A stretch of 64,000 bases of DNA. Origin: Candidatus Kaiserbacteria bacterium (GTDB taxonomy: Bacteria; Patescibacteriota; Minisyncoccia; Phycocordibacterales; UBA2100). A program made the position numbers and the translations under genes. This document shows, piece by piece, positions 1 through 48,670 of this stretch. Every line of letters begins with the position of its first letter. Within the stretch, counting starts at the first letter, position 1. The stretch is from NCBI GenBank assembly GCA_023267655.1, contig JAHFMV010000001.1, positions 31,954 through 95,953 on the forward strand. Direction: 5' to 3'. The notes below the pieces were generated by a model. That model did no database searches. It was not told where the DNA came from and was given only the letters and a program-made list of their open reading frames with translations.

Positions 1-409
1 ATACATTCGCGAACACAACCTCACCAACGTCGAACTGCGTCCGTCAATCACCCACGACAAAGTACCTGAAGCCATAAACTCCTTTGACATCTGCATCAGC
101 TACCCGTTGAAATTTCGCGATGGTGCGACATCGCCGTTCAAAATCTACGAATATCTCGCCTGCGGAAAACCGGTCGTGTCCTCGGATTTGAAAAGCATGC
201 GCGAGGAGTTCGGTGACATCCTCGCGTACGCCGAAGCCGAAAATGCGGAGTCACTCGCACGTACGCTCAAGAAATTGATTGACAACCCCGCAGCCCGAAG
301 CGCGGCCGGCGAAGCCGGCCGCGCCTTCGTTGAGAACGGCAGAAGCTGGAAATCCGTCGCAGGAAAGATCATTGCTTTGTATGCGGTAATCGAACAACCG
401 AACAGGTAA
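1..409 (+). CDS. glycosyltransferase family 1/4, C-terminal part (5' end lies outside the window)
   Basis: Frame 2 is open from base 2. The translation ...VELRPSITHDKVPEAINSFDICISYPLKFRDGATSPFKIYEYLACGKPVVSSDL... carries the EX7E-type 'E-Y-L-A-C-G-K-P-V' signature of GT1/GT4 C-terminal Rossmann domains. Stop TAA at 407-409. Confidence 0.7.
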   Translation, partial: YIREHNLTNVELRPSITHDKVPEAINSFDICISYPLKFRDGATSPFKIYEYLACGKPVVSSDLKSMREEFGDILAYAEAENAESLARTLKKLIDNPAARSAAGEAGRAFVENGRSWKSVAGKIIALYAVIEQPNR

Positions 410-426
410 CTGGTCGTTCCACTCGC

Positions 427-807
427 TTATTCCATGAGCGGCCTCATATCGTCAAAGGGAGGTACATACGATGTACCATGTGCTTGGAGATATACATGCA
501 ATTTTTCTTCAAGCCGCGGAATATTTTGGTGGGCGATTTTCCATATTGTCCCAAGTTCGAGCATAAAATAATCATGCGAAATGATATTGCGTAGTCCGAC
601 AATCATCTTCCACGGTGCGTCGATCTCGTTCTGTGTATCCGCATCCAGTTTTTTCGCGAGTTCCCCGATGACTTGCAGCTGCATGATAACGGCGCTTTGC
701 GTCTTGGAGTCCGACAGAAATGCTGGTTCATCGAATCCCGTGATATATTCCGTGGCTTTCTTGCAGGCAGCTATGATGAGATCAATGTAGACATTATTGT
801 CTTTCAT
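427..807 (-). CDS. hepT: HepT-like (DUF86) toxin of a type VII HepT/MntA toxin-antitoxin pair
   Basis: 126-aa ORF with the R-x4-H-x-Y motif (GLRNIISHDYF). It overlaps the 3' end of the upstream nucleotidyltransferase gene by 14 nt. Confidence 0.75.
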   Translation of the reverse strand: MKDNNVYIDLIIAACKKATEYITGFDEPAFLSDSKTQSAVIMQLQVIGELAKKLDADTQNEIDAPWKMIVGLRNIISHDYFMLELGTIWKIAHQNIPRLEEKLHVYLQAHGTSYVPPFDDMRPLME

Positions 808-1090
808 AGATGATCTTCAAATCGCGTTTGATGTAGGGGCGCATTCGGGCGACAACCTGTGTATCCGGCACCAGATCTACTTCAACCCCCAGGATATTTT
901 TAAGGTCTTCCTCCGCCTCTTGCTTTTCAAGAAAACTAATCGGATGTCCTTCGTCAGAGAACAAGAAATCCGCATCACTATCGGCTCGATTGTCTCCTCG
1001 TGCGCGCGAACCGAAGACGCCAACCTTGCGGAAGCCGTACTTCTTGAATATTGGCCGCGCCTTCTCGACAAGTGAATCTAGATCTTCCAT
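794..1090 (-). CDS. mntA: MntA-like minimal nucleotidyltransferase antitoxin
   Basis: G-S-x9-13-D-x-D motif (GVFGSRARGDNRADSDADF). Start chosen at MEDLDSL (ATG 1088-1090). The longer ORF-track start at 1189 reads through the duplicated glycosyltransferase segment in antisense and is probably not real. Confidence 0.7.
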   Translation of the reverse strand: MEDLDSLVEKARPIFKKYGFRKVGVFGSRARGDNRADSDADFLFSDEGHPISFLEKQEAEEDLKNILGVEVDLVPDTQVVARMRPYIKRDLKIIYERQ

Positions 1091-1147
1091 ACCCACGATG
1101 GTAGCATATTTTTCGCCATATCGCTGTATGTGGTTAGGCAGGATTTT

Positions 1148-1240
1148 GCGGCCGGCGAAGCCGGCCGCGCCTTCGTCGAAAATGGCCACAGCTGGCGTGC
1201 GGTTGCAGAAAAGATTCTCGCACTCACGAGCCTCTTTTGA
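1148..1240 (+). repeat. decayed duplicate of the glycosyltransferase 3' end (gene remnant)
   Basis: 29 nt identical to 303-331 (gcggccggcgaagccggccgcgccttcgt), then about 70% identity for a further 55 nt. It translates in frame to AAGEAGRAFVENGHSWRAVAEKILALTSLF*, against AAGEAGRAFVENGRSWKSVAGKIIALYAV... in the intact gene. Confidence 0.7.
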
Positions 1241-1251
1241 AGTGGTAACGA

Positions 1252-1542
1252 CTATCGGCGTGGGGATCCGAATACTTTTTCTTCGAGTTTGCCGAGGCGG
1301 ACTTCGGTCTTTGTGTCCCGCAGCTGCTGCTCGATTGAGTTGACCTGGGTCTGGAGTGCATATACCTGATCTTTGGTGGCAAGTCCGTCCATTCGTGCGT
1401 CAATGCGGGCTACATCTTCTGCGACGGCGCCGAAGCCCTTCTCCATCCGCGCATCAATGCCGACAACATCTTCGGCAATCGTCTCTACGAGCTTCGTCAA
1501 TTTGTCGATTTTGTTCTCGAGGGTTGGTTTTGCGGATTTCAT
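1252..1542 (-). CDS. hypothetical small coiled-coil protein with an internal tandem repeat (DV.GIDARM x2)
   Basis: ORF with ATG at MKSAKPTLENKIDKL. The repeat is visible in both nucleotide and peptide sequence (…EDVVGIDARMEKGFGAVAEDVARIDARMDGL…). Confidence 0.45.
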   Translation of the reverse strand: MKSAKPTLENKIDKLTKLVETIAEDVVGIDARMEKGFGAVAEDVARIDARMDGLATKDQVYALQTQVNSIEQQLRDTKTEVRLGKLEEKVFGSPRR

Positions 1543-1561
1543 ATGCGGCAGTATAGCATGG

Positions 1562-1732
1562 TCATTCTTTGGCATTACGCACCGCTTCAATCTTCTTGAT
1601 AGTACGCTCAAGCGCTGCTCCGCACGTGTTGCAGAGGCGCGCCTGATTGAAAAGGTAGCCGCGGCCGACGCTGTAGCCAGATTTTCTGTCGGGAATTTTC
1701 TTATTGCAGAGATCGCAGAGTTCGATGTTCAT
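1562..1732 (-). CDS. 56-aa zinc-ribbon protein (CxxC…CxxC)
   Basis: MNIELCDLCNKKIPDRKSGYSVGRGYLFNQARLCNTCGAALERTIKKIEAVRNAKE*. It is absent from the ORF track because it is under 60 aa. It sits immediately upstream of, and overlaps, the coiled-coil gene. Confidence 0.45.
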   Translation of the reverse strand: MNIELCDLCNKKIPDRKSGYSVGRGYLFNQARLCNTCGAALERTIKKIEAVRNAKE

Positions 1733-1893
1733 CGTGTGATGTTATCACGCATCGATTGCGCGCAAGATTGCGGAGCTGCCTTGATTGTTGTCGATCATGC
1801 ACAGGACGAAAATGAGGTGCAAATGTGGGGTGAAGTACACCGAGCTCGCGCCCGGGCGGTTCAAGAATTTTTGGGAGGATTGAGGACAGCCGG

Positions 1894-3087
1894 TTAGCGG
1901 CGCGGGACGAAGAGCGTGCGCGGAAAGAATTCGTTGTACTCCTCCTCGTTGAACCACGCGCACTTGATGTCGAAGAGCTTGAGACCGGGCACGAGGCGGG
2001 TGAGTGCGAGCGCGTAGATCGCGAGCTGCGCGATCGGCTTGTTGGTTCGTGCGTCCGGTTTGTAATCCAAGATATGCACGGCGCCATTGCGCACCTGCAA
2101 GAAATCGATGTGACCGGTGATGGATCGGTCGGCCGCGCCGGTGCGCGGTGCGAGCTCGATGTGGTGCTGTTGCTCGAGCGCGGTGATGTCCGTCTCCGCT
2201 AGCCAGATCGGGATCTCGATTGCAACCGTGACGCTGTCGTTGGTGAGCATGAACTTCTGCAGCGTCTCGTGTCGCAACTTGTTGTTGCCAACGGCCGGAA
2301 TGATGAGGCCGGCAATGCGGGTCGCGATGTTCTCCTTGCGGTTGACGATCACGCGCGTGATGTCCGCGAAGTCAGGCTGCGCTTGCGACGCGCGGCCGCG
2401 ATCTTCCGCACGAAAGAGGTCGTGCGGACAAATCAGTGGCACGGCCTCCAAGAAATTCGCGAGCGATGCGAAGCGCGTGTCGCCGTGGCGCTTCTCGTCG
2501 AGTTCACCACGACGGAGAAATTCTAGCTTCGGCCGGTGGAACGCGTAGCCATAGACCTGGCGGTGATAGAGCTTGATCGACCGAAGCGTTTGCTCGGGAG
2601 GGAAGAGATGCCGGCCGCGATCACGCAACCGCGAATAGCTCATGAGGTCATGATGCTGCGCGAGCCAGCTCGAGAGCGTCGAGGGAGCGATGTGGCGACC
2701 GCTCTTGGATTTGATGCGCGCTACCGTGTCCTCCAGCGAGTAGCCAAGATTGTAGGTTGAGAGCGCATCGATCACGGTGCGCAGCGGGTAGGTTTTGTTT
2801 TTGAGCGCGGCGGGGCCGGGCGTGAAGACGCGCTTGCACGATGCGCATCGCCACAGTTGCACGATCTCCAACTTCTTCTTGCGCGTGCCACGGCGCGTGA
2901 CGACGTGGCTGCCGCAGTGCGGACAGGCGTCGGGTTGCTTTGCGGTGAGCGGGACGCGGGCGATGCGGGGGATGGGGGACATACTATTGTATGTGTTCAC
3001 CGTATCATGCAGATCACGGATTTTGAATGGAGAGCTCACGAATTCTGGACGCGTGAGCGCACGCGTTTTGGATGCGGAGCGGCTCAC
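1894..3087 (-). CDS. N-terminal zinc-ribbon plus C-terminal PD-(D/E)XK-like nuclease-fold protein (possibly mobile-element associated)
   Basis: Zn ribbon CPHCGSHVVTRRG…WRCASCKRVF. The C-terminal region GHIDFLQVRNGAVHILDYKPD fits a D…(D/E)xK nuclease motif. The true start may be the internal ATG at 2982 (MSPIPRIARV…). Confidence 0.5.
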   Translation of the reverse strand: MSRSASKTRALTRPEFVSSPFKIRDLHDTVNTYNSMSPIPRIARVPLTAKQPDACPHCGSHVVTRRGTRKKKLEIVQLWRCASCKRVFTPGPAALKNKTYPLRTVIDALSTYNLGYSLEDTVARIKSKSGRHIAPSTLSSWLAQHHDLMSYSRLRDRGRHLFPPEQTLRSIKLYHRQVYGYAFHRPKLEFLRRGELDEKRHGDTRFASLANFLEAVPLICPHDLFRAEDRGRASQAQPDFADITRVIVNRKENIATRIAGLIIPAVGNNKLRHETLQKFMLTNDSVTVAIEIPIWLAETDITALEQQHHIELAPRTGAADRSITGHIDFLQVRNGAVHILDYKPDARTNKPIAQLAIYALALTRLVPGLKLFDIKCAWFNEEEYNEFFPRTLFVPRR

Positions 3088-3132
3088 GGATATTGAGCAA
3101 GAGGAGGCGCGCGGAGCGCGCGGTTGAGCCGA

Positions 3133-3570
3133 CTATTGGGTGCCGGTGTCGGGGAGTTCCGCTGGCTCCGGAGGAGCGTTGCCGTCATGCGACGACTGCT
3201 CCGCGCCCTGCGGTTGCGGGTTGTCGTTTGCTGCGGGTGGGATGAGCACCAATGGTGTTGACGAGGATACATCTAATAGAGAGGACGGTGCGACTGGGGG
3301 TGTGCTGGTCGCGGCATCAACCGGTGTGGTAGTGGTTGGGGTGTCCGCATGCATCTCCAATGCGGATGAGCCGCTCGGCGCCCCCGCGCCGTCTCCTACC
3401 GGCGTTGTGATGCTGGCGGCTGATGATTGGCTTCCTCGAAACACCGCTTCGAATTGCTCCGGCGTGACGCAGGTCGAGCCGACGCAGAGTTCGTCGGTGT
3501 TCACGCGGCCGAAATTTCCCACCTTGGCGAAGAAGTCGGTGATGCCGTCTGAGGCGGAAACCGAGCCACG
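3133..3570 (-). CDS. C-terminal tail module homologous to the C-terminus of the 1959-aa giant protein; possibly a frameshifted continuation of the 613-aa gene
   Basis: The frame is open from 3570 with a GTG start at 3522. The peptide …GITDFFAKVGNFGRVNTDELCVGSTCVTPEQFEAV…GAPSGSSALEMHADT…PPAANDNPQP aligns with the giant's tail …GIGEVFARVFRAKDALCINDTCVNEDQLKAM…GAPGGSSALEIHADT…PPAANDNEPN. A 40-nt stretch of nucleotide near-identity lies at 3341-3380 versus 5731-5770. Confidence 0.4.
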   Translation of the reverse strand, partial: RGSVSASDGITDFFAKVGNFGRVNTDELCVGSTCVTPEQFEAVFRGSQSSAASITTPVGDGAGAPSGSSALEMHADTPTTTTPVDAATSTPPVAPSSLLDVSSSTPLVLIPPAANDNPQPQGAEQSSHDGNAPPEPAELPDTGTQ

Positions 3571-3613
3571 TCACCAAGGCAACTTTGCAGACCTGCAAAA
3601 ATGCGTCGCTGAC

Positions 3614-5455
3614 TCAACTACAGTGGGCGAGTGAAGCACGTGTTCTAGGACCGACGGCGCCGTAGCCGGTCGTCGTCGAGGAACCGCTTGCGACAATTTC
3701 TTTGGAACGTTGGTACATCTGGACAGCGGTTTGTGTCAGCCTTCCAAAATAGCCGGTGTCGTTGCCCGGAACTAGAAGATGTCGTCCAATGAGATGCCGT
3801 TGCAGCATCGCCACGTCTGTGCCACGGAACCCAACGGAAAGATTGCGCGCGAGCACCGGACACGCGCCTGCGAGTTGCGGGGGAGAGGAGGAAGCGAGGA
3901 CCTGAACATCTGGAATTGCCGGCGGCGGCATTGTCAGCGGCATCGGATTGGATGAAGGCGGCGTGGCAGAAGAGGGAGGCGTTGCAATGGCTGGAACGGC
4001 AGGCGTACCCGGAGTCGGGGTAACCGGGCTCGAAGGTGATGCGGGCGTCAGCGACCGCCACCTGGCGTCATACTCTGCTTGCATGGCCGCGATCGTATCG
4101 CGCACCGACTTCGTGCCATATGCGGTCGTGATCACGTCGTCATAGCGATACGGAAAAATGACGTACTTCGCGTGGTAGGGATGCGGATCGACTGAAGAGC
4201 TTGGGCGCAGTGTGATCGTGTGCAGGTTCGCAAACTTGATGACTCCGTCGTTCGCTCCTTGCGCGACAGTGTACGAAACGGAGCGCGTATCATTCTTGAG
4301 CGTCGGGTCATAAAACCACGCGATCGTAACGTCGTCAGAAGAAGGACCGGAAGCGTTCTCAAACGTGACCCAGCGGAGGTCGATCTGAGGGAAGCCGGAG
4401 TTGTACCCCTGGTTCATTTGGGTGATTGAAGGGATCTCGACTTGCGCGACACCGCTCGGCGATGGCGTGAAGTACCGGCGATAGCCGCTGGTAAAGTAGA
4501 AGGTCGGCAGTTCAAAGAAGCCATTGCGCGTCTTTGCTCCTGCTCCCTTGTTCTCGATGGTGATGTCGTATGCGAGATAGTTGTCAGAAGCAGAGACGGA
4601 CTGTGCGAGATGCAACGTGTCTGCAGCATTCCAAGGTCCCGCATAACTCGGCCCGTAGTCCCAGTTCATCATGGTCATGTCGCCAAAGTCGACGTGGTTT
4701 TGCGCAAGGCTACATGATTGATCTGCAAAGCCGTCGCAGGTGATCGTGGGTGCGTTCGAGCCGGTCGCGACGATCGGAACCATGCTCGTTTGGTTGCCGA
4801 CGTACGTGCAGAAAGCACCGGCTTGAGTCGGATTCCAGTAGCCCTGATGCACGTCGCATGAACTTGCGGTGCCAACTGCACGCGCCATAGCGTTCGCGTC
4901 AGCTTCGTCCTGATCGTGGAACGCGACTTGCAAAGCGGCGCCCATGTTGGCGTGCAGGGCGTTGTGCGGCATCGGATCTTGCAGGGAGGTGCCGACGGCA
5001 CGTTTGCTGTAAAACTCGTAGGTCGCTCCGGTGTTGCGGTCGAGCTTCGCGCTGTAGGCCGACTTGTCGATCGATATCAGACGGTTTTCCGAAAATGCTG
5101 AGTAGTAGGGATCAAGCGTCACGGCCGACGAAACAAGGGTGTCCTTGAAGTCGGGGGGCGGCGCGAGCGTCGTACAGTCAGCTCCAATATCCCACAAGCG
5201 TACCAAGATGTTGGAGCCGGGCGTGCCGACCGGAAGCGGCTTCTTGAAGAGACATAATCCCGATCCGTGATCGGCGAGCGTGCAGCGATTTTGGAAATCG
5301 TTGGCGTCGGTGCCTACGAACCACACGTCTGCCGTGACTGGCGTATTTGGGCAGCCTGGGTACTGCGCCGCGAGCTGTGCTCCCACTGAATTGGCTCGTT
5401 GGGACAACAGGACCGGTTCAATCCAAGATGCTTGTGCAAAGGACGAGGCCGGCAC
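3614..5455 (-). CDS. secreted protein with a C-terminal peptidoglycan-binding domain (PG_binding_1-like) and a Pro/Thr-rich linker
   Basis: 613-aa ORF. The C-terminal LQRHLIGRHLLVPGNDTGYFGRLTQTAVQMYQ matches the PGBD consensus. An N-terminal signal-peptide-like stretch (…GTLILSSVIGATLVVPASSFA|QA) lies upstream of the track's GTG start and has no canonical ATG/GTG/TTG. Confidence 0.7.
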   Translation of the reverse strand: MPASSFAQASWIEPVLLSQRANSVGAQLAAQYPGCPNTPVTADVWFVGTDANDFQNRCTLADHGSGLCLFKKPLPVGTPGSNILVRLWDIGADCTTLAPPPDFKDTLVSSAVTLDPYYSAFSENRLISIDKSAYSAKLDRNTGATYEFYSKRAVGTSLQDPMPHNALHANMGAALQVAFHDQDEADANAMARAVGTASSCDVHQGYWNPTQAGAFCTYVGNQTSMVPIVATGSNAPTITCDGFADQSCSLAQNHVDFGDMTMMNWDYGPSYAGPWNAADTLHLAQSVSASDNYLAYDITIENKGAGAKTRNGFFELPTFYFTSGYRRYFTPSPSGVAQVEIPSITQMNQGYNSGFPQIDLRWVTFENASGPSSDDVTIAWFYDPTLKNDTRSVSYTVAQGANDGVIKFANLHTITLRPSSSVDPHPYHAKYVIFPYRYDDVITTAYGTKSVRDTIAAMQAEYDARWRSLTPASPSSPVTPTPGTPAVPAIATPPSSATPPSSNPMPLTMPPPAIPDVQVLASSSPPQLAGACPVLARNLSVGFRGTDVAMLQRHLIGRHLLVPGNDTGYFGRLTQTAVQMYQRSKEIVASGSSTTTGYGAVGPRTRASLAHCS

Positions 5456-5537
5456 GACAAGTGTTGCGCCAATGACGGACGAAAGAATGAGAGTGCCGTG
5501 GGTCAGATACCGAATATGGTATCACGCATCCGGGCAC

Positions 5538-8500
5538 TTACTCGTTGACAGCTGTGGGTGTGGCCACATCGACGTTGGGCTCATTGTCGTTCGCGGCTGG
5601 TGGAACAGGTGGATCATTCTCCACTGCTCCCTCCTCGCTTCCCGCAGTGCCATCTCCGGTCTCGGTCGGAGTGGTGGGGCCGGTGCTGGTTGCGGTCGGG
5701 GAACTATCCGTCGACGGCGTCGTTGACGCGGTGTCCGCATGTATCTCCAATGCGGATGAGCCGCCGGGCGCTCCAGCTGATCCTCCCGGTCCTGTTGTTG
5801 CAGCGCCGGCGGCTGATGCTGAGAGCATCGCTTTGAGCTGGTCTTCATTGACGCATGTGTCGTTGATGCAGAGTGCATCCTTTGCGCGGAAGACGCGTGC
5901 AAATACTTCGCCGATGCCGTTGGTGGCGTCGGCGAGCCACTGTGTCAGCCGCGCAAAGAGGGAAGCGAAGAAGCGGCTGGTGAAGGTGCCTTCCGGGATT
6001 TCGGGCGTGGTAGTCGCGAGGTCTTCGAGTTTGAGGTTGAGGTCTTGGATCGCCTTTGCGAGGAGGGGCGTGATGCGGCCGTAGTCAACGCTCCACGGCG
6101 TCGAGGTTGCCCCGAGCGGGTCGATGCCGTTGTCGCCGTTGGTGGTCACGGCCCACGGGAAGACCTGTTGCAATTCCTGCGCGATGAAGCCCGTGGTCGT
6201 CGCGTGTGCCGGGTCGGTGATGAAGTCGAAGTCGCGCACCGTGAGACGCATCAGCGCGTCCAGCCCCAGCGTCGTCGTCGCGATGTTCTCTTTGATGCGG
6301 CGATCCGAAGAGGTGTTGTAAGAGACGATGCTTTCATTTTGCGCGATGTTGCCTGCCACCCCGCCCGAGGTATTTAGGAACAACACCGACGAGCCGCTAT
6401 AACTGGCACTCGTGCTCCTCATTGTAATGGCTTGTTGTGTGCTAGCGTTCCAACTTAAATATAATTTTGATCCATCGGAAGTTGCGCCGATGCCGACGTT
6501 GCCGGCGCTGTTCGCGTTGAGCGAAAGTGTCGACCCTTCAATTGCAAGTGGCTTATATACGGCTCCCGCACGGTCGTAAGCGCGGACCTGGCCTGACGTT
6601 CCGTCCCACGTAAGCTCCGTGCCGACACCGTTCGTTGGTGCCACCTGACTCGTCGCGCGTATCGTGCCAAAGACGTCCAATTTTCCGGTTGGAGTAGTTG
6701 TGCCGATGCCGACGTTGCCGCCGCCCGTGACAACAAAATGCGTGGCGGTCGAGGAGCCGATCACAAATTCAGGGACGCCACTGCCGAGGGCATTTGGATT
6801 GACGGAGAGGAGGGCCCACGGACTTGTCGTGCCGATGCCGACGTTGCCGGCGTTCAATGTCATGACATCGCCACCGGTGCGGGTGTAGAGACGGATTTGA
6901 TCCGTTTGCGACGTGGGCCGGTAAATTCCTCCCGCTTCGAGACTATCCGACTGGAACGACAGTGCACTCAAAGATGCGTTAGGTGAATTTATAACTGAAT
7001 ACGTATTGCCTGTGCTCGAGACCACTAATGTCTTGGCGGGCGACGTGGTGCCGATGCCGACGTTGCCGCTGGAGTTAACGAGGAAGTAGGTGGCCGTGCT
7101 GGAGCCGATGGCGAAGGAGTTGATGCCTGCGGCTGCATGCACGCTCAGCTGCGCCCACGGGGACGTGGTGGCTATTCCGAATTTCCCGGCGCTGTATGCC
7201 GAGCCGTCGTTGTTCACCTGGAAGAGAGTAGTCGACGCGGAGTTCGCGACGAGGAATGATTGCGTTGAAGCCGATGTGTCAGAGCCCCAGAGCGTGAGTT
7301 TAGAGTATGGGGTGGAGGTGCCGATGCCGACGAGGTCGGTGCTATCGGCGAGGAATGATTGTGTGTTGTCGTTTTGCCAGCCGCCGGCGGTGGCGTTTAC
7401 GGGTGCGATGAGGGCGCCGGTGAAGTAGGTCGCAGCTGCAGTACCGTCAATTATTGTCCCGTCAGTAGTGCCACGTGCTTCGATATAGTCCGTTGTGCCG
7501 TTCATATCAACAACGGCTGTTGCCATGCCCGTGGCGTCAAAACTACTGCCGCGATAACGGCCAACCCCAACTGGGATCGCATTTTTGTATATTGATCCAT
7601 CGCAGTATGCGACTGAAACGGACTGGCCAAAATCTCCGCAACGAACCGAGAGAGTGATGATGTACTTGCCTGGGACTGTCGGCGTGAATTTGTTCGAGGC
7701 GAAATTGTTATTGGTGTCGAATGTCTCTGTGGACCAGGTCAAAGCAGTGTCGACGTTCGCCGACACCGTCTGATCCGTCCCGTTCTTGTTCACACTAAAA
7801 CTCGGCCCACTGGTAGCGGTCGTGACGCCCTGCCACGTGCCGCCGGAGTTCTTGAACTCGAGCATGCCCGCGTTGTCGCGGAAGCCGTAGCCCGAGGTGC
7901 CTTCGGTCGCGCCGAAGTTCAGATAACCGCTTGCCGGGAAAAGCGCGTTGCCGCTCGCCGTGAACGTCGTCGTCGCCGTGCCGCCGAAGTATGCGCTGTA
8001 TGCAGAGAGCATTGTCGTCGAAGCTCCGCCGTTGAAGAGCGTGAGCGTTGTTGTTGCGCTCGTCCCTGCGACCGCGTGGGTAAAGGGATCGCCGCCCGAG
8101 CCGGAGCCGCATGCGGACGCATTTGCCGAGACCGTGCCGTCGCTACCCACTTGCAAGCAGCGCGTTCCCGTCCCGCCTGTGTTCGAGATCACGAGCGCCG
8201 TCGTCGATGCGGTCGTAGCGGAGAGCATCGTTGTCGATGCGAAGGGGATTGAAAGTGCCGTGCCCGCGGGTGCGGCGAAGTTGATGGTGAGATTTGATCC
8301 GCCAACGAGTGCACCGGCAGTTCCGGAGAACGAAAGCGCGGTGCCGGCCGACAAGGAACTTGTCGCGACCGATTGATACGCAGTGCTACCGCCGTACAAG
8401 AGTTGTGAGACGGGAGCGGTCGTGGTGCCGGTACCACCTTTCGCGATTGTGAGCGTTCCCGTGATTGTCGAGAGCGTGGAGGTTGCGATCCACGACGGCT

Positions 8501-11417
8501 TGCCGTTTTGGAGCGTGAGCACCAGGCCGTCAGTGGAAGAGGCAAGCGTGGTGAGCGAGCTTGCGGAGTTCGCGTAGAGAAGATCACCGGAGGTGAACGA
8601 CGAGAGACCGGTGCCACCCTTGTTTGCGGCGATCGTCGTCGCGTTCCACGTGCCTGTCCCGATCGTTCCGAGCGTCGTGACGTTCGTTGACCCTGCCCAC
8701 GTCGAGAGCGCGGTGTTCTCGACGTTGTTGAGGGCGAGCGTTGACTTGAGATTTGCGGTTGAGGTGCCGGCGAGCGTACCGGTGCCGGATGCAAAGAGGA
8801 CATCACCAAGCGTGTAAGAGGTGAGGCCCGTGCCACCGGAGGCGACACCGAGCGTGCCGCTGATGTTCGCGAGCGTCGTGGTGGATACCCATGTTGGTGT
8901 TCCAGAGACGAGCCCAAGGACTTGGCCGTTGGTACCGGCTGATGTTGTCGCGACAGGGCCGGTACCGTTGCCGAGGACGACTGCACCGCTTGCGACGTTC
9001 GCCCAGCCGGTGCCGCCGTTTGATACGCCGAGGATGCCGGTGACATTCGACGCGAGATCGACGAGTGCGGTGGTGATCGATCCCGCAGTTGCTTTGAGAA
9101 ACCCGGAGAGTGCACCGATTGAGAGGTTGCCGAAGAAGCCGCTCGTTGATGAGGCGTACGTTGCGGAGAGGTTGGTGGTCGAGGCGGTGCCGAGTGTAGC
9201 CTTGCCGGTCACGTCGAGCGTGCCGGCGATCGCGACATTGCCTGCCGTGTCGATCGTCGTCGATGCGGTCGCACCGAACTTCGCTTGGAGGGCGGAGAGA
9301 AGTGTTGAAGATGCTTGTTGAATATTGGTGACGTACGTCGTGGTTGTCGGCGCGAGGAAGTTGCCGGAGACTTCCCACGACTTGCCGAAAAGAGATGACA
9401 CGGCAGCGTAATCCGTGCCGGCGACGGCCGAGGTGACTTGGCCTCCCGTTGTTGTTTTCAGGAGTGAGCCACTGTTGATGCCGGAGATCCACAAGTTGGT
9501 GGAGCTCGCGGTTGTTGCCGTGATCATTGTTGTGGAGGCGAAAGGAAGCGAGCTCGCGATGCCGTCGCCGCGGATTGTGGTGGTGGCGGTGCGGCCGATA
9601 GCGACGTAGTCGAAGGCATCGAGCCGCGTTGTTGTTGCGTTCGTCGCAACGAGGGTGGTGGATGTGAGGTTAGTGATTGTCGCCGCGACGGATGAGAGTG
9701 TGTCGATGATGCCCGTTGTGAAGCGGCCGAGTGTCGCGAAAAGATTTGTCGATGTCGCATTGGTCGCTGTGGCGTTGGTGAAATCCGCGTTCACGAAGTG
9801 CGAGGTCGATGAGGCGAAGAGACCGGATTGCGCCCAGATGATGGATGAGGTCGCGGCGGCGAGTTGTCCGTAGTTCGAAAGGAACGTGAAGGGTGACGCG
9901 GAACCGACCGCAGTGTCGTCCGATCCGCAGATCACATTGCCGTTTGCATCGGTCTGCAGAAGTTGTCCCGACGACGAGCAATCGAGGCCGGAGAGTGTGA
10001 GACCGCCGGCGAGACGGATGCCGTTTGCAAATGTCGATGTTGCTGTTGTTGACGTGACATTGAGTGCGGTTGTTTGCAGACCCGCGCCGAAGGTCGAGGT
10101 TGCGCTGCCGAGAATTGTTGTCGTTGCGGTGCGGCCGACAAAGATGCCATCCAGTGATGAGAGTGCGGTGGTTGATGCGCCGCCACCCAAGAGGACGAGT
10201 GAGGTGGTTGCGCTTTGTCCTGCGACCGCATGCGTCCACGCATCGTACGATGCAAGACCGCCACCACCGCTCGTGATGCCGAGCGATGAAGTGGCAGCAA
10301 GATTATAGCCGCCGGAAGAATTTCCCAATAACAGTTGACCGTATGTCGGAGACGCTGATGTTGCGGTGCCGCCTTTCGCGATTGCGAGAACGCCGGAGAA
10401 ATCCGTTGCCGTGATTGATCCGCCGGTGATCGTTGCACCACTGATCGTGCCGCCATCGATTGTGGGGGAGTGGAGTTTAGTGTCTGTGAGTTCTTCGATG
10501 CGACCGACGCTGCCTACGGTTTGGTAGATCGTCTGGCTTTCGGAATGTGATGCCGCGGCGACGCTCGCGATTTGTGATTGGAGCGATGTTGCGAGTGCGG
10601 TCATGCGTGCATCCAGTAGAGCGGCGTTGATCCCACCTTCGGTGACGGTGCGGACGGTTTCGCGGATGCGTTCGATGACCGGATTGTTGACCACTGTTAG
10701 AGAGCGCTGCGCCTCTAACGTGGCAGGTTTGGTTGTTGGGGATGACCCTTTCTCTGAAGAGGTTGAGAGCGTTGTTGCTGGTGGTGGCGGCGCTCCGGTT
10801 GGTGGTTGCAGATGTTGTTGCGTCGAAGGTGTTGCGATTTCTGTGGGCGAACAGTTTCCGATGATCGGGCACACCGCGTTGAAAACATTTGATGCAAGCG
10901 CATCGATCCACGGAAGCGATGCGACGGCTGCGAGTTGCGATTGGATATTTTCCGGTGCGTGTGTTGCTGCGTCGACGGCTGCGGCGAATTTTTGTGGCGC
11001 GATGTTTTGAAAGGCGAGGGCGCCGGATGCCATGACCGCGAAGAGCGTAAGTGTTGCGAGAAATGCAGTGCCCGCGGCACGCACGCGTTGTGCGCGTTTG
11101 ATGTGTTGTTTGAAGCGGTCGTTGAGTTCGCGGTGTGGTGCGACGGTGATTGGAGATGTTACGGCGTGGCCGTTGGCACGCTCCTCTTTGCGGAGTTCGC
11201 GAGTTCTCTCGCGCAATGCATCTTTTCGGCGGGCTTGGTTCGCGCGCCATTCTGAAAGTGACGCAGGATTGACGTACCACTCGCGGCCTTCAAGCCTGCC
11301 GTGGACGACGCCCTTGCGACATAGGCGGCTGATGTAGTCAGCGGAAATTTCGACACCAGTTGCGGCGTCTCTCACGGAAACGAAGCGCACACCGGCCACA
11401 ATAATTTCAGATGACAT
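5538..11417 (-). CDS. giant (1959 aa) membrane-anchored tail-fibre-like surface protein with N-terminal excisionase-like HTH, one TM helix, GNVGIGT(T/A)SP beta-repeats and a Peptidase S74 intramolecular-chaperone domain
   Basis: ATG at 11415-11417. Residues 1-60 resemble the HTH_17/excisionase fold (…VSVRDAATGVEISADYISRLCRKGVVHGRLEGREWYV…). TM helix AAGTAFLATLTLFAVMASGALAF. Four or more GNVGIG(T/A)TSP repeats. SSDRRIKENI…GFIAQELQQVFPWAV matches the phage endosialidase/tail-fibre chaperone (S74) autoproteolysis module, about 6310-5990 nt. Confidence 0.85.
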   Translation of the reverse strand: MSSEIIVAGVRFVSVRDAATGVEISADYISRLCRKGVVHGRLEGREWYVNPASLSEWRANQARRKDALRERTRELRKEERANGHAVTSPITVAPHRELNDRFKQHIKRAQRVRAAGTAFLATLTLFAVMASGALAFQNIAPQKFAAAVDAATHAPENIQSQLAAVASLPWIDALASNVFNAVCPIIGNCSPTEIATPSTQQHLQPPTGAPPPPATTLSTSSEKGSSPTTKPATLEAQRSLTVVNNPVIERIRETVRTVTEGGINAALLDARMTALATSLQSQIASVAAASHSESQTIYQTVGSVGRIEELTDTKLHSPTIDGGTISGATITGGSITATDFSGVLAIAKGGTATSASPTYGQLLLGNSSGGYNLAATSSLGITSGGGGLASYDAWTHAVAGQSATTSLVLLGGGASTTALSSLDGIFVGRTATTTILGSATSTFGAGLQTTALNVTSTTATSTFANGIRLAGGLTLSGLDCSSSGQLLQTDANGNVICGSDDTAVGSASPFTFLSNYGQLAAATSSIIWAQSGLFASSTSHFVNADFTNATATNATSTNLFATLGRFTTGIIDTLSSVAATITNLTSTTLVATNATTTRLDAFDYVAIGRTATTTIRGDGIASSLPFASTTMITATTASSTNLWISGINSGSLLKTTTGGQVTSAVAGTDYAAVSSLFGKSWEVSGNFLAPTTTTYVTNIQQASSTLLSALQAKFGATASTTIDTAGNVAIAGTLDVTGKATLGTASTTNLSATYASSTSGFFGNLSIGALSGFLKATAGSITTALVDLASNVTGILGVSNGGTGWANVASGAVVLGNGTGPVATTSAGTNGQVLGLVSGTPTWVSTTTLANISGTLGVASGGTGLTSYTLGDVLFASGTGTLAGTSTANLKSTLALNNVENTALSTWAGSTNVTTLGTIGTGTWNATTIAANKGGTGLSSFTSGDLLYANSASSLTTLASSTDGLVLTLQNGKPSWIATSTLSTITGTLTIAKGGTGTTTAPVSQLLYGGSTAYQSVATSSLSAGTALSFSGTAGALVGGSNLTINFAAPAGTALSIPFASTTMLSATTASTTALVISNTGGTGTRCLQVGSDGTVSANASACGSGSGGDPFTHAVAGTSATTTLTLFNGGASTTMLSAYSAYFGGTATTTFTASGNALFPASGYLNFGATEGTSGYGFRDNAGMLEFKNSGGTWQGVTTATSGPSFSVNKNGTDQTVSANVDTALTWSTETFDTNNNFASNKFTPTVPGKYIITLSVRCGDFGQSVSVAYCDGSIYKNAIPVGVGRYRGSSFDATGMATAVVDMNGTTDYIEARGTTDGTIIDGTAAATYFTGALIAPVNATAGGWQNDNTQSFLADSTDLVGIGTSTPYSKLTLWGSDTSASTQSFLVANSASTTLFQVNNDGSAYSAGKFGIATTSPWAQLSVHAAAGINSFAIGSSTATYFLVNSSGNVGIGTTSPAKTLVVSSTGNTYSVINSPNASLSALSFQSDSLEAGGIYRPTSQTDQIRLYTRTGGDVMTLNAGNVGIGTTSPWALLSVNPNALGSGVPEFVIGSSTATHFVVTGGGNVGIGTTTPTGKLDVFGTIRATSQVAPTNGVGTELTWDGTSGQVRAYDRAGAVYKPLAIEGSTLSLNANSAGNVGIGATSDGSKLYLSWNASTQQAITMRSTSASYSGSSVLFLNTSGGVAGNIAQNESIVSYNTSSDRRIKENIATTTLGLDALMRLTVRDFDFITDPAHATTTGFIAQELQQVFPWAVTTNGDNGIDPLGATSTPWSVDYGRITPLLAKAIQDLNLKLEDLATTTPEIPEGTFTSRFFASLFARLTQWLADATNGIGEVFARVFRAKDALCINDTCVNEDQLKAMLSASAAGAATTGPGGSAGAPGGSSALEIHADTASTTPSTDSSPTATSTGPTTPTETGDGTAGSEEGAVENDPPVPPAANDNEPNVDVATPTAVNE

Positions 11418-11889
11418 GATTATTCGGAAAGCCTAGGTATTGCCTAGAATTTCCGTCATTGGCTCATGATAGCGTGCCACCGTCTGGCAGTGTGCGGTTA
11501 TCCACTTTCAAGTGGAGCGCGGGATGGTATCGCGCTAGCTGGTACAGCGGAGCCGGAGTCCACATCGTGCATACCGTATGCGCCGATTTTCCTCGGAAAT
11601 GAGTGTCACCACGACCATCACGCGAAGCCTTCAGTCGATGTGGCTTGTGATCTCGACCAGCGGTTCTCGAGCGGCTTCTATCGCCAGCTTATGCGCACTT
11701 TACATCCGAGATTCGTTGTTCATATATACCCGGAATAGCTAGCATTTACATGATATCTCGGTATCTCGGGTCATAGTACGGGAGGCGGCCAAATTGCGGT
11801 GCACAACGCCATAACGCAATTGAGTGCGCCAGCGCTGGAGCGACACGCGCTCGTCGATTTGGAGTTGGCGGAAGTTACACTGTAGAGAT

Positions 11890-11930
11890 AAAGCAGGTGC
11901 ACGTTTTCCAGATGACGAGCGCCTTCATGG
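11890..11930 (+). repeat. decayed duplicate of the 3' end of the monooxygenase gene (12744-12790)
   Basis: Identical 21-mer gcacgttttccagatgacgag at 11898-11918 and 12748-12768, with about 85% identity over about 36 bp. The reverse translation MKALVIWKTCTCF… compares with GMDALVIWKTCIYLITNMF in the intact gene. Confidence 0.6.
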
Positions 11931-11955
11931 TGCGAAATCATGGTATAATCGCGAA

Positions 11956-12243
11956 ATGCGCATTACGGAAGCACAGGCACGGCTGCTGAAAGAAGGGGTC
12001 CGCGAATACCTGCCACAGGCGAGTGTGTATCTGTTCGGGTCGCGTGCGGACGATGCGAAGCGTGGCGGCGACATTGACGTGCTTGTCGTAGGGGAGCGGC
12101 CGCTTCAACCTTTAGAGAGCAGCCGCGTCAAGGCGAGATTTTATGAACGTTTCGGAGAGCAGAAAATCGACATTGTGAGTTTCGCAGAGGGCGAACATAC
12201 CACGTTCCGCGATCTGATAGAATCCGAGGCGGTGCCTCTCTGA
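11956..12243 (+). CDS. mntA: MntA-like nucleotidyltransferase antitoxin (second copy)
   Basis: MRITEAQARLLKEGVREYLPQASVYLFGSRADDAKRGGDIDVLVVGE carries the GS…D.D motif. It is preceded by TGgTATAAT at 11941-11949, only 6 nt before the ATG, which implies a leaderless mRNA. Confidence 0.7.
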   Translation: MRITEAQARLLKEGVREYLPQASVYLFGSRADDAKRGGDIDVLVVGERPLQPLESSRVKARFYERFGEQKIDIVSFAEGEHTTFRDLIESEAVPL

Positions 12244-12244
12244 A

Positions 12245-12700
12245 ATGCATATGCCCGATACCGCGAACATCAAACGCGCCCTCCTCGAGAATGTTGCATC
12301 GCTGCAGCGCGCGGGGCGCGTCTTGGCGCGTTCATACGAGAAATGCCGCACCATCACAGTTCCTTTCCCAGCCGAAGACGACGAGATGCTCGAAACCATA
12401 GAAGCGTTGACTTCGCGCTTCGCGCGCGCCTCCGATATCTTGACACAGCGAGTCGGCAAATCGATCGTCGCGCTTTCTCGCGAAGATGCGCCGTCTATTA
12501 TTGATAGGATACACCTCATGGAGAAAATCGGCGCGATCGCAAGCGAAAATACGCTCATCGCGATCCGAGACGTTCGCAATGAAATCGCGCACGAATATAC
12601 CGAAGAAGGCGTACAGAAAGTATTTGAAAAATGCATGCCGCTCGTACCGCAGCTCCTCGTGATGATTGATTCGGTCGCGAAGTACGCTGAGAAACTATAA
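12245..12700 (+). CDS. hepT: HepT-like (DUF86) toxin (second copy)
   Basis: R-x4-H-x-Y motif (IRDVRNEIAHEY). The start is 1 nt after the stop of the upstream mntA. Confidence 0.7.
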   Translation: MHMPDTANIKRALLENVASLQRAGRVLARSYEKCRTITVPFPAEDDEMLETIEALTSRFARASDILTQRVGKSIVALSREDAPSIIDRIHLMEKIGAIASENTLIAIRDVRNEIAHEYTEEGVQKVFEKCMPLVPQLLVMIDSVAKYAEKL

Positions 12701-12707
12701 GCGAAAA

Positions 12708-14057
12708 TCAGTGCGCTTTGCGAAACATGTTTGTGATGAGGTAGATGCACGTTTTCCAGATGACGAGTGCATCCATGCCAAAGAGCCGCGCTACGTGGCG
12801 CTCTTTGCGATAGCGTTTATAGGCGACCGCGTAGGACATCGTCGTGTGGACGACGAGTGTGTAGAGGGAATGGAAATTTTCGGGAAAATATTTCTCGAGG
12901 ATCATTTCGACGTTTGAGCGAGAGACAAACAGCGGCATTTCGTAGCGGTCTTTGAGGTCGATGAAGCGCGCTTTGCATACGTCGGCGAGAACGTCGGTGT
13001 CCGGCTTACGCCGCGCTTCGAAAATTTGGAACACGGTTTCGATGTCCGGGTAATACGTGTCGAGGCATTCGGCAAAAATGCGACAGTCTTCAAATGCAGC
13101 GTTGATTCCTTGACCATAAAAAATAGTGACCGCATGCGCGGCGTCTCCGAGCAGAATGCAAAAGTCACGGTAATACCATTTCGATGTGTAGAGCGAGGTG
13201 AACGGCGTCGATGGCTGCGTAAGGAAATCGTTGACGTGGGGTGCAAGATGCGGATACAAATCGGGGAAGTGTTCGGTACAAAATCTTTCGAATGATTCTG
13301 TCGATTGGATCGATTCAAAACTGTCCGGACCGGTAAGCGGAAGCGTGATCGTACAGGTAAAAAAGTTGCCTCGGTTCGGAATGCCGAAAATTGCTGCTTT
13401 TTTCTTTGACCATAGATGGAAGGCGTTCTTTTGGAACGGAATTGATCCGTCGGTCGGTGCTGGCACGTACATGTTTTTATACCCCCAATCCATGACGTCG
13501 AGTTTCGCACGGAGGTGCCCGGCCTGTTCCATTTCTTTGCGAACCACCGAATGGATGCCGTCCGCGCCGAGGAGGAGCTCTACTTTTTTCGTGGTATGCG
13601 CTTTTGTTAGTTGGTTTTCAAATTCTATTTCACGCGTCTCGAAATCAATGTGGACGCAGCGCTCATTGTAGTGCGTGTGAATCGAAGAATATTTTTTCAT
13701 TTCTCGGACGAGCGCGCAGTTTAAGTCATTGCGATTGATCGACCACTCGGCGAGTCCTTGCTTTTCGCCATAGGCCTGATACAGAAGTCCGTTTTTCTGG
13801 TGGATGATGCGGCCGGCTTCACGCGTGCAGAGTTTTTTCACTTCGTCCCACATCTGCACTTCCTGCAGCGCACGGATGCCGCGCACGCAGAGCGACTGGT
13901 TGATTGATTTGTACGAAACCACGGGGAGGTTTTCGATGCTTTCACGAGATTCATATATTTCGACGATGAAGTTTCTTCGCGCAAGATAGATCGCAAGCAG
14001 TGAGCCGCCCATGCCAGCGCCGATTATCGTGACCTTCTTGTCAGGTGTCTTTATCAT
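12708..14057 (-). CDS. FAD-dependent monooxygenase, kynurenine 3-monooxygenase-like
   Basis: N-terminal GAGMGGS dinucleotide-binding motif; SIN…RG, LLLGADGIHSVVR and LLGDAAHAVTIFYGQGINAAFEDC match KMO/UbiH-family blocks. Confidence 0.7.
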   Translation of the reverse strand: MIKTPDKKVTIIGAGMGGSLLAIYLARRNFIVEIYESRESIENLPVVSYKSINQSLCVRGIRALQEVQMWDEVKKLCTREAGRIIHQKNGLLYQAYGEKQGLAEWSINRNDLNCALVREMKKYSSIHTHYNERCVHIDFETREIEFENQLTKAHTTKKVELLLGADGIHSVVRKEMEQAGHLRAKLDVMDWGYKNMYVPAPTDGSIPFQKNAFHLWSKKKAAIFGIPNRGNFFTCTITLPLTGPDSFESIQSTESFERFCTEHFPDLYPHLAPHVNDFLTQPSTPFTSLYTSKWYYRDFCILLGDAAHAVTIFYGQGINAAFEDCRIFAECLDTYYPDIETVFQIFEARRKPDTDVLADVCKARFIDLKDRYEMPLFVSRSNVEMILEKYFPENFHSLYTLVVHTTMSYAVAYKRYRKERHVARLFGMDALVIWKTCIYLITNMFRKAH

Positions 14058-48531: not shown

Positions 48532-48670
48532 ACGCTCTCAACACCCCACAGAACCTGCGCCATTTTGCGGCATAAAAACGTACTACAATACGAGTAATGA
48601 TAGGCGCGAACAGGGCCGCGTATTTTTGTGTGGGTGCAACTCTCTTTTTTGCTGTTTTTTGTGCATTCAT
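48532..48670 (+). promoter_or_regulatory. native 5' leader/promoter and start of the 5021-aa gene (copy C of the triplicated module)
   Basis: TTTTGCGG…TACAAT then acgagta then ATG at 48597. The -10-like hexamer sits only 7 nt from the ATG, which implies a leaderless or near-leaderless transcript. Confidence 0.55.

Follow-up and report, generated by a model that had tools for sequence, protein, structure and literature searches.

A start-less second copy of a giant Peptidase_S74 fibre tail in a Candidatus Kaiserbacteria genome: a probable displaced fibre end

Orphan C-terminal tips of the Rhs/YD-repeat and CdiA toxins arise by 'C-terminal displacement', and in the icd duplication at e14/phage 21 an integrative element brings in a replacement 3' end and displaces the old one. 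The element described here resembles both in part. It lies in a 64,000-nt stretch (the window) of contig JAHFMV010000001.1 of Candidatus Kaiserbacteria bacterium (GCA_023267655.1, positions 31,954–95,953), where positions 3133–3613 hold a start-less second copy of the C-terminal module of a giant Peptidase_S74 fibre gene, probably an orphan fibre tail severed from a fibre and chaperone of its own. The giant fibre gene, a 613-aa peptidoglycan (PG)-binding gene, the orphan tail and a PD-(D/E)XK nuclease gene are all encoded on the minus strand (Table 1).

As in the Rhs and CdiA systems, a second copy without a start codon, limited to the C-terminal part, lies behind the full-length gene on the same strand; in the window it begins inside or just before the conserved junction and is separated by one unrelated gene, and arrays of such remnants are present elsewhere (loci L004 and L050). 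The orphan has the form of a start-less same-strand copy keeping part of the junction, but the toxin domain and cognate immunity gene of an Rhs/CdiA cassette are missing, the tail being of low complexity and free of domain matches. The interleaved genes differ as well, coding for a PG-binding protein, a caspase/FGE-sulfatase and a cyclase/FHA protein with no toxin or immunity gene among them; the displaced part is a small helix-hairpin-helix core with low-complexity sequence, the junction is the end of the S74 chaperone instead of a PxxxxDPxGL or VENN motif, and cleavage is predicted to remove the displaced part from the mature protein. With the icd/e14 type the locus shares a gene with a 'new' 3' end that is expressed and a start-less 'old' end across the inserted DNA; here, however, there is neither an integrase nor an identical att core at both boundaries, and the inserted segment would hold only the giant's own tail (tail A) and the 613-aa gene.

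The last residues of the orphan are ...ELPDTGTQ and those of many relatives ...LPATGT[EQ], which recalls the LPXTG sorting signal. However, the proteins stop two residues past the Gly, and the hydrophobic segment and basic tail of a sortase substrate are absent from the orphan and from the giant alike; moreover, the giant has TPTAVNE as its C-terminus, and LPATGT[EQ] is confined to a high-GC subclade of the family. No open reading frame (ORF) of a TLxTC-type sortase was found within the 64-kb window. The giant itself is comparable with phage tail fibres and spikes and with the MAT fibres of Bdellovibrio (PMC10769870) in having a long repetitive fibre followed by an S74 domain, whose self-cleavage motif SDxxxK (as defined in PMC10769870) reads SDRRIK. 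It differs from them at both ends: the chaperone is the terminal part of the phage profiles and, as described, of the MAT S74 proteins (PMC10769870), whereas the giant adds about 150 residues beyond it, and its N-terminus is HTH_17-like with a transmembrane segment instead of a phage attachment domain.

The orphan tail and its 613-aa neighbour

The first-pass annotation of this DNA, made from the sequence alone, had described a 1959-aa gene followed on the same strand by a 613-aa gene, a stop of the latter at 3614 with a frame change, and a new frame open from 3570. Both ORFs (5538–11417 and 3614–5455, minus strand) and the frame change were recovered as described. The 613-aa gene is terminated by TGA 3616–3614, and the tail frame, which is one base off, has a TGA of its own at 3573–3571, from where 145 codons remain open between 3570 and TAG 3135–3133; the stop of the 613-aa gene and this opening are 43 nt apart. 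The claimed homology of the resulting peptide of about 145 aa to the C-terminus of the giant was supported both by BLASTP with composition adjustment (E=2e-7, 41% identity over 82 aa) and by tblastn without it (E=5e-21, 43% over 124 aa); in the tail frame it covers the last ~125 aa of the giant, and tblastn produced no third copy in the window. The nucleotide identity of the two tails was 59% overall (371 aligned columns), and the 40-nt stretch of ~90% identity reported earlier falls inside a 59-nt direct repeat of 83% identity (3329–3387 and 5719–5777), which contains a 22-nt exact match at 3353/5743. The peptide motif GAPGGSSA is kept across the high-GC subclade.

The homologous unit begins upstream of the tail frame. 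A hidden Markov model (HMM) of the module core with 55 positions, built from relatives with the orphan left out, scored the orphan at 59.9 bits in its native state versus 73.2 bits after one T of the run at 3558–3560 had been removed, which gave a continuous match (TWLGSASDGITDFFAKVGNFGRV). The core homology opens 1–5 codons past the stop of the 613-aa gene and in the frame of that gene, the one-T-removed alignment beginning with FLQVCKVALVTWLG five codons past that stop. Addition of the 18 upstream residues raised the score from 61.1 to 74.2 bits, a value which none of 2000 shuffles and only 4 of 2000 random window peptides reached. Because of this score and its controls, the unit was delimited as 3613–3133 with a +1 frameshift in its most conserved motif. 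The sole canonical start codon of the tail frame, GTG 3522, comes after the NGIxDFFA motif and hence inside the core.

By its core (helix, NGIxDFFA, C-x4-9-C hairpin and helix) the orphan is a member of the same post-S74 family as the giant, with 57.7–59.9 bits native and 73.2 bits mended in comparison to 93.2 bits. By position only the giant qualifies, a large protein with its core behind S74 and no more than about 260 aa away from the C-terminus; no S74 domain was present upstream of the second copy in any frame, and it was named an orphan since neither a fibre nor an S74 domain precedes it. No promoter-like or minus-strand terminator-like site was seen between the 613-aa gene and the orphan, and Pfam, NCBIfam and PHROG gave no domain match in the latter. 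A known RNA or tRNA target site was rejected, there being no Rfam match in 2900–6100 and no tRNA in 1–13000. A contig from a second assembly (L032, named k141) is 100% identical over 9845 bp, carries the same TTT at 3558–3560 and ends at 3270. The k141 name was read as that of a short-read assembly, which makes a homopolymer error of long reads an unlikely source of the extra T.

Table 1. Features of the fibre locus (window coordinates unless a locus is named)
Feature	Position	Strand	Basis
Giant fibre gene, 1959-aa ORF	5538-11417	-	ORF list, Pfam, core HMM
Parts of the giant: HTH_17-like N-terminus, one transmembrane segment, repetitive fibre, Peptidase_S74, own tail		-	ORF list, Pfam, core HMM, PHROG
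Peptidase_S74 of the giant	6147-6308 (aa 1704-1757)	-	Pfam PF13884, 45.2 bits vs cut-off 22
Own tail of the giant (tail A)	about 5541-5990; core 5823-5984	-	core HMM 93.2 bits
613-aa gene	3614..5515 (ORF from GTG 5455: 3614-5455)	-	ORF list, Pfam, homologs
PG_binding_1 of the 613-aa protein	3683-3826 (aa 544-591)	-	Pfam PF01471, E=5.8e-7, 30 bits vs cut-off 23
Probable orphan (displaced) fibre tail, start-less 3' remnant, whole post-chaperone module in two frames	3133..3613	-	homology to giant C-terminus, core HMM
First 18 codons of the orphan (VSDAFLQVCKVALVTWLG), in the frame of the 613-aa gene; align to family helix ffaslkarLtawlA	3560..3613	-	core HMM
T-run with one extra T, +1 frameshift inside the core (WLG / SASDGITDFFA)	3558..3560	-	deleting one T restores the match
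Orphan core, conserved, as read in the tail frame (SASDGITDFFAKVGNFGRVNTDELCVGSTCVTPEQFEAVF)	3439..3558	-	core HMM 57.7-59.9 bits
59-nt stretch, 83% identical to 5719-5777, encodes GAPxGSSALE[MI]HADT	3329..3387		DNA comparison
60-nt block (ANDNPQPQGAEQSSHDGNA)	3172..3231		89-97% identity among five loci
Copies of the block, 55-60 nt	L003 10520-10579; L004 10572-10642; L092 5751-5807; L095 7031-7086		sequence comparison
PD-(D/E)XK nuclease + IS1/IS1595-type Zn-ribbon 'transposase-like' gene, 397 aa	1894..3087 (homology unit 1836-3098)	-	Pfam, NCBIfam

The 613-aa gene stands between the two tails. Its product exceeds the PF01471 gathering score, which bears out the earlier assignment of a C-terminal peptidoglycan-binding domain. 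The description of the protein as secreted stood only in part: a signal peptide (IRYLTHGTLILSSVIGATLVVPASSFA|QAS) is encoded in frame (window 5455–5524), but upstream of GTG 5455, the sole canonical start of the gene, and is therefore missing from the product of that start. The codon ATT 5515–5513 aligns with the ATG of the homologs P0001 and P0002 and may be either a rare start or a mutated start codon, in which case the protein would not be secreted. An exact look-up of the product returned no record and a large protein collection only 11 homologs, of which P0002 and P0003 (Ca. Paceibacterota metagenome-assembled genome, MAG) share the C-terminal PG-binding domain. Both of them, as well as the PG-binding end of protein P0078, stop where the 613-aa protein stops (...TGYGAVGPxTRxxxxxC[NS]), the ends of the two homologs being ...TGYGAVGPKTRIAISRCN and ...TGYGNVGPRTRAAIAALCEH versus ...TGYGAVGPRTRASLAHCS in the window; P0002 and P0003 thus end without a tail. 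In the loci of the closest homologs (L001 and L002) neither a fibre gene nor a tail was located nearby, and a regular partnership of this family with fibre genes was rejected on that ground. Since the homologs with the PG-binding domain end at the same residue and the closest homologs have neither a fibre gene nor a tail nearby, the 613-aa gene is complete at its 3' end and an unrelated neighbour of the two tails. The first-pass annotation had regarded the module as common to two adjacent surface proteins; it is carried by the giant only.

Several relatives differ in what they carry at the C-terminus. The closest homolog, P0001, is 70% identical over aa 1–489, with SH3/fn3 in place of the PG-binding domain. 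P0078 (L033 1314–2021) is an orphan tail adjoining an H-NS gene and ends in a PG_binding_1 domain that is 58% identical to the C-terminus of the 613-aa protein, compared to only 47% for the PG-binding domain of the 613-family member in L001. From such sequences the PG-binding module seems to have been shuffled between tails and other surface proteins.

The tail module behind the S74 chaperone

The S74 domain of the giant passes the PF13884 gathering score, and SDRRIK is situated at the start of the chaperone domain (context ...NTSSDRRIKENI...). Tail-fibre PHROG profiles match the chaperone region and stop at ...LNLKLEDLATTT, exactly at the first residue of the module. The module itself had no PHROG, Pfam or NCBIfam match and no relative of its core in IMG/VR; since IMG/VR also lacked relatives of the PD-(D/E)XK gene and of the 60-nt block, a phage origin of the module was rejected. 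In a sequence search of solved structures, the S74 part had a marginal match to the T5 fibre 6f45 (E=0.3) and the tail module none.

A profile search with the two window copies retrieved 34 small ORFs, most of which were the visible 3' ends of S74 genes (...ITPLLAKAIQDLNLKLEDLATTT...SRFFASLFARLTQWFADATNGIxDFFA...ELCVGSTCVTEDQ...). The exhaustive HMM search extended the core to 1835 protein clusters, 477 of them at E<=1e-10; among the best 150 of the 1835, the median distance from the end of the core to the C-terminus was 104 aa. Each of the 55 listed proteins of at least 600 aa had the core in its last 21%, ending within 264 aa of the C-terminus, so the C-terminal position that the first-pass annotation had proposed for the module applies throughout this set. 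Within species-representative genomes the core was present in 26 loci, 24 of which belonged to MAGs of the candidate phyla radiation (CPR, Patescibacteria), namely Paceibacterota, Parcubacteria, Nomura-, Kaiser-, Magasanik- and Gottesmanbacteria, Saccharibacteria and Minisyncoccia, and the other two to Xanthobacteraceae and Rhodoplanes MAGs. In the CPR loci the core lies 60–160 aa before the end of ORFs of 620–2500 aa, and Peptidase_S74 was found about 100 aa upstream of it in 8 of 10 tested.

The intact order is fibre, S74 chaperone with SDxxxK, a core of ~55 aa and 60–260 aa of low-complexity sequence, the latter at times with an Ig-like or PG-binding domain or an LPxTG-like end. The tails of low-GC CPR members are P/T/E-rich, some with a Bact_surface_Ig-like domain. 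The first-pass annotation was right in recognizing a conserved module, but the motifs by which it was defined, SSALE[IM]HADT and PPAANDN, are restricted to the high-GC subclade. An AF2 (AlphaFold 2) monomer model computed from a shallow alignment was of low confidence (pLDDT 59.5 overall) and placed elements H123-154, E160-167 and H169-183 in the core (block-mean pLDDT 68–88), with disordered sequence after them. According to this model, the core is predicted to consist of a long amphipathic helix, NGIxDFFA, a short beta-hairpin with one of the two invariant cysteines on either side, and a further helix. Being downstream of SDRRIK, the module should leave with the chaperone fragment after the predicted S74 self-cleavage. 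As for the sorting or anchoring signal proposed in the first-pass annotation, the module may have a role in wall association, since some members end in PG_binding_1 (P0078) or in LPxTG-like termini. Judging from these searches the module appears to be an undescribed and uncatalogued family.

The N-terminal part of the giant (window 10428–11417) opens with an HTH_17-like (excisionase/MerR-type) DNA-binding domain, a weak Pfam match, followed by one transmembrane segment, which is unusual for a surface fibre. In L004 gene calling assigns the HTH_17 part to a small gene of its own, upstream of the fibre gene, and matches to the N-terminus of the giant were also obtained in L011, L056 and L057. 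A second giant ORF of 5021 aa (window 48597–63662, plus strand), which contains low-complexity stretches rich in P/T/G and, close to the C-terminus, a hydrophobic segment, had no S74 domain or tail core, and tblastn gave only weak low-complexity matches for it.

Synteny, recurring orphans and the GC-rich island

The PD-(D/E)XK/Zn-ribbon gene starts 46 nt past the stop of the orphan. It is a member of a family of more than 1400 homologs, often labelled 'transposase-like', and in the CPR loci L034/L036, L061 and L085 such homologs are encoded on the same strand as intact tails, beginning 0–1.4 kb beyond them. As they follow intact tails elsewhere, the orphan occupies the place of a normal fibre 3' end.

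Orphan tails recur in related loci. In L004 a fibre with its own core (7684–7857) is followed by an opposite-strand caspase/FGE-sulfatase gene and then by an orphan (10064–10729), and L050 (1095–3227) carries on one strand an orphan, an adenylate-cyclase/FHA-type gene and a shortened orphan; further internal orphans were detected in L005, L033, L045, L053, L068, L081 and L091. The 75 non-redundant core instances included 12 orphan or split cases, every one of them at a GC of at least 0.56, and there were none among the 54 low- and mid-GC instances.

Some of these loci have peculiarities of their own. The second orphan of L050 is a deletion derivative in which the core joins ...PAEELPATGTE almost directly. 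The 2606-aa fibre gene of L004 (72–8061) shifts frame within S74, its own core being in another frame, which may be a true frameshift or an assembly indel error. In L027 (1175–2845, Xanthobacteraceae MAG) a short S74 fibre gene and a tail share one frame with a single TAA between them; this TAA falls within the last chaperone helix (ISPIVSAI*GIANVTSSFQQNLIAWLG), a start codon is missing from the tail part, and from the sequence the TAA would be either a nonsense mutation or a readthrough site.

The PD-(D/E)XK gene, the orphan, the 613-aa gene and the giant fibre gene together occupy a GC-rich island (about 1836–11500, GC 0.58–0.62 compared to 0.50–0.52 in the flanks) inside a Patescibacteria (Minisyncoccia-type) contig. 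The island looks horizontally acquired. It contains no tRNA, and flanking att-like repeats were rejected, none longer than 12 nt being present. Two-gene modules of an MNT-type nucleotidyltransferase (putative on the left) and a small putative HEPN-like partner flank the island (window 427–1189 and 11824–12700); the right-hand nucleotidyltransferase, also present in L032, matched NTP_transf_2 and Polbeta.

Within the orphan, a 60-nt block that is missing from the giant's own tail recurs in L003, L004, L092 and L095 (Table 1), its flanks being unalignable among the five loci. The block had no match in Rfam or IMG/VR and folded no better than shuffles (z = -0.42); the L032 contig ends 39 nt before it. 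The window copy of the PD-(D/E)XK unit (1836–3098) was 77–81% identical in nucleotides to those of L092–L095, with protein identities of 84–87% (P0204, P0211 and P0215) and 83% (P0209). Contigs L092–L095 have a GC of 0.60–0.64 and encode integrases, ArdC, ParA, AlpA, H-NS, an outer membrane protein (OMP) beta-barrel and TRAP/Tct transporters, by which they look proteobacterial and integrative-element-like. Tail fragments were present 2.4–4.2 kb upstream of the PD-(D/E)XK gene and on the same strand in three of these four loci (L092, L093 and L095). Together these similarities suggest that a Patescibacteria genome and Alphaproteobacteria-like genomes have recently exchanged fibre-tail DNA, perhaps in connection with the nuclease gene.

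Displacement of fibre ends and the competing explanations

The order of events and the loss of function are what we infer from the arrangement. According to the favoured displacement of a fibre C-terminus, tail A and one unrelated gene, that of the 613-aa protein, would have come to stand upstream of an older tail, either because they inserted at the chaperone/extension boundary or because the fibre body was replaced, and the old tail would have been stranded downstream, retaining its original 3' neighbour, the PD-(D/E)XK/Zn-ribbon gene. Lacking a start codon at its homologous beginning and carrying a frameshift in its most conserved motif, the orphan is most likely an untranslated, decaying relic that could serve at most as a recombination substrate. 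Several observations weigh against this explanation. The 145-codon frame is still open, for which we estimate a chance of about 1% in random DNA of such composition, so the remnant must be either young or constrained. Orphans elsewhere start at or near one domain boundary, which would suit a cassette or a recombination hot-spot equally, and many of them are located on short, possibly error-prone metagenome contigs. In addition, no recombinant or ancestral version of the window locus was found, and a 5' relic of a second fibre gene, which was also considered, is absent from the window.

The open frame is also the starting point for two of the competing explanations. The orphan could be a functional silent cassette, comparable to the Rhs/CdiA orphan tips or to the pilS copies of Neisseria, that is, a start-less reservoir from which the C-terminal tail of the fibre is swapped by recombination with deletion of the 613-aa gene or by gene conversion. 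Its location 2 kb downstream of the expressed fibre gene on the same strand, the retention of a 5' core able to guide recombination, the comparable arrays in L004 and L050, the clustering of orphan starts at or near the module boundary, and the 59-nt stretch with its 22-nt exact match, which resembles a trace of gene conversion, all agree with such a role. However, an overall identity of 59% with no exact match longer than 22 nt makes a poor substrate for homologous recombination, the core is frameshifted, the interleaved genes are mutually unrelated and so offer no immunity-like partner, and no recombinant form was observed. Besides, a swap of a tail located behind the S74 cleavage motif should not alter the mature fibre, and on balance we consider a silent cassette unlikely. 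Even less probable is an independent small gene, which the first-pass annotation had offered as one of its two options. Such a gene would code for a secreted or wall-associated peptide ending in LPDTGTQ, of 129 aa from GTG 3522 or of about 155 aa from TTG 3598 by a programmed +1 shift. The 145 open codons, the many small ORFs among the database entries of the family and a plausible Met start in P0027 speak for it. Yet the homology crosses the +1 shift, GTG 3522 is placed inside the core and, in our reading, has no Shine-Dalgarno-like sequence, there is no signal peptide, and GGT TTC C is no known slippery site. Furthermore, most of the small database entries begin at contig ends or have out-of-frame N-termini, and well-assembled genomes always have the module as the C-terminus of a large protein.

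The other option offered there, a single gene made up of the 613-aa ORF and the tail and broken by a programmed or mutational frameshift, is already contradicted and hardly credible, although the two are adjacent on the same strand with only the 43-nt gap between them and P0078 does join a tail core with a PG-binding domain of the same type. The TGA at 3571–3573 of the tail frame lies past the stop of the 613-aa gene, because of which a single frameshift cannot join the two, readthrough plus a shift being needed; the 613-aa protein and its homologs have a common end point, and in P0078 the order is core and then PG_binding, opposite to that of the window. A programmed-frameshift fusion was therefore rejected. 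We give scarcely more credence to the adjacency being an assembly chimera, or the pair being the template and variable repeat of a diversity-generating retroelement. The L032 contig breaks off at 3270, immediately ahead of the block that recurs in other loci, which would fit a chimera, but both assemblies show the same sequence at the 613/orphan junction and at the right border of the island, and the giant, the PD-(D/E)XK gene and housekeeping genes are located on one 160.5-kb NCBI contig of a Patescibacteria MAG. A 3'-end copy downstream of a surface-protein gene is indeed the layout of a retroelement of this kind; it was rejected because no reverse-transcriptase YxDD motif occurred in any ORF of at least 150 aa in the 64 kb and the mismatches between the copies, at 59% identity, are spread over all four bases with no adenine bias.

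Displacement of a single tail could also be one instance of something wider, although we put this forward only tentatively and consider it rather improbable: an exchangeable tail-cassette system common to S74 fibre genes in Patescibacteria and in the Alphaproteobacteria-like genomes that occur together with them. A tail together with one cargo gene would insert at the boundary behind the chaperone and push older tails into orphan arrays, as a Rhs-like C-terminal displacement in non-toxin fibres, and the PD-(D/E)XK/Zn-ribbon gene may drive or share the movement across phyla. The identity of the 60-nt block, the 77–81% identity of the PD-(D/E)XK unit and the confinement of all orphan tails to the high-GC subclade fit with it, and the interest of the locus would increase if this extension, with its cross-phylum exchange, were true.

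For annotation, the consequence is that the 613-aa gene should be treated as complete at its 3' end and the tail as a pseudogene fragment and not as a frameshifted extension. To our knowledge, the cassette-like turnover familiar from Rhs and CDI toxins has no description for S74 fibres, and full-text literature searches found no report of it for S74 fibre ends. Giant surface fibres are prime candidates for the means by which ultra-small episymbiotic bacteria recognize and hold their hosts, and an uncatalogued module beyond the phage-type chaperone, at times equipped with PG_binding_1, LPxTG-like or Ig-like parts, provides a handle on the assembly and anchoring of such fibres. The displaced orphan tails between unrelated genes suggest that the fibre ends turn over by cassette-like recombination.

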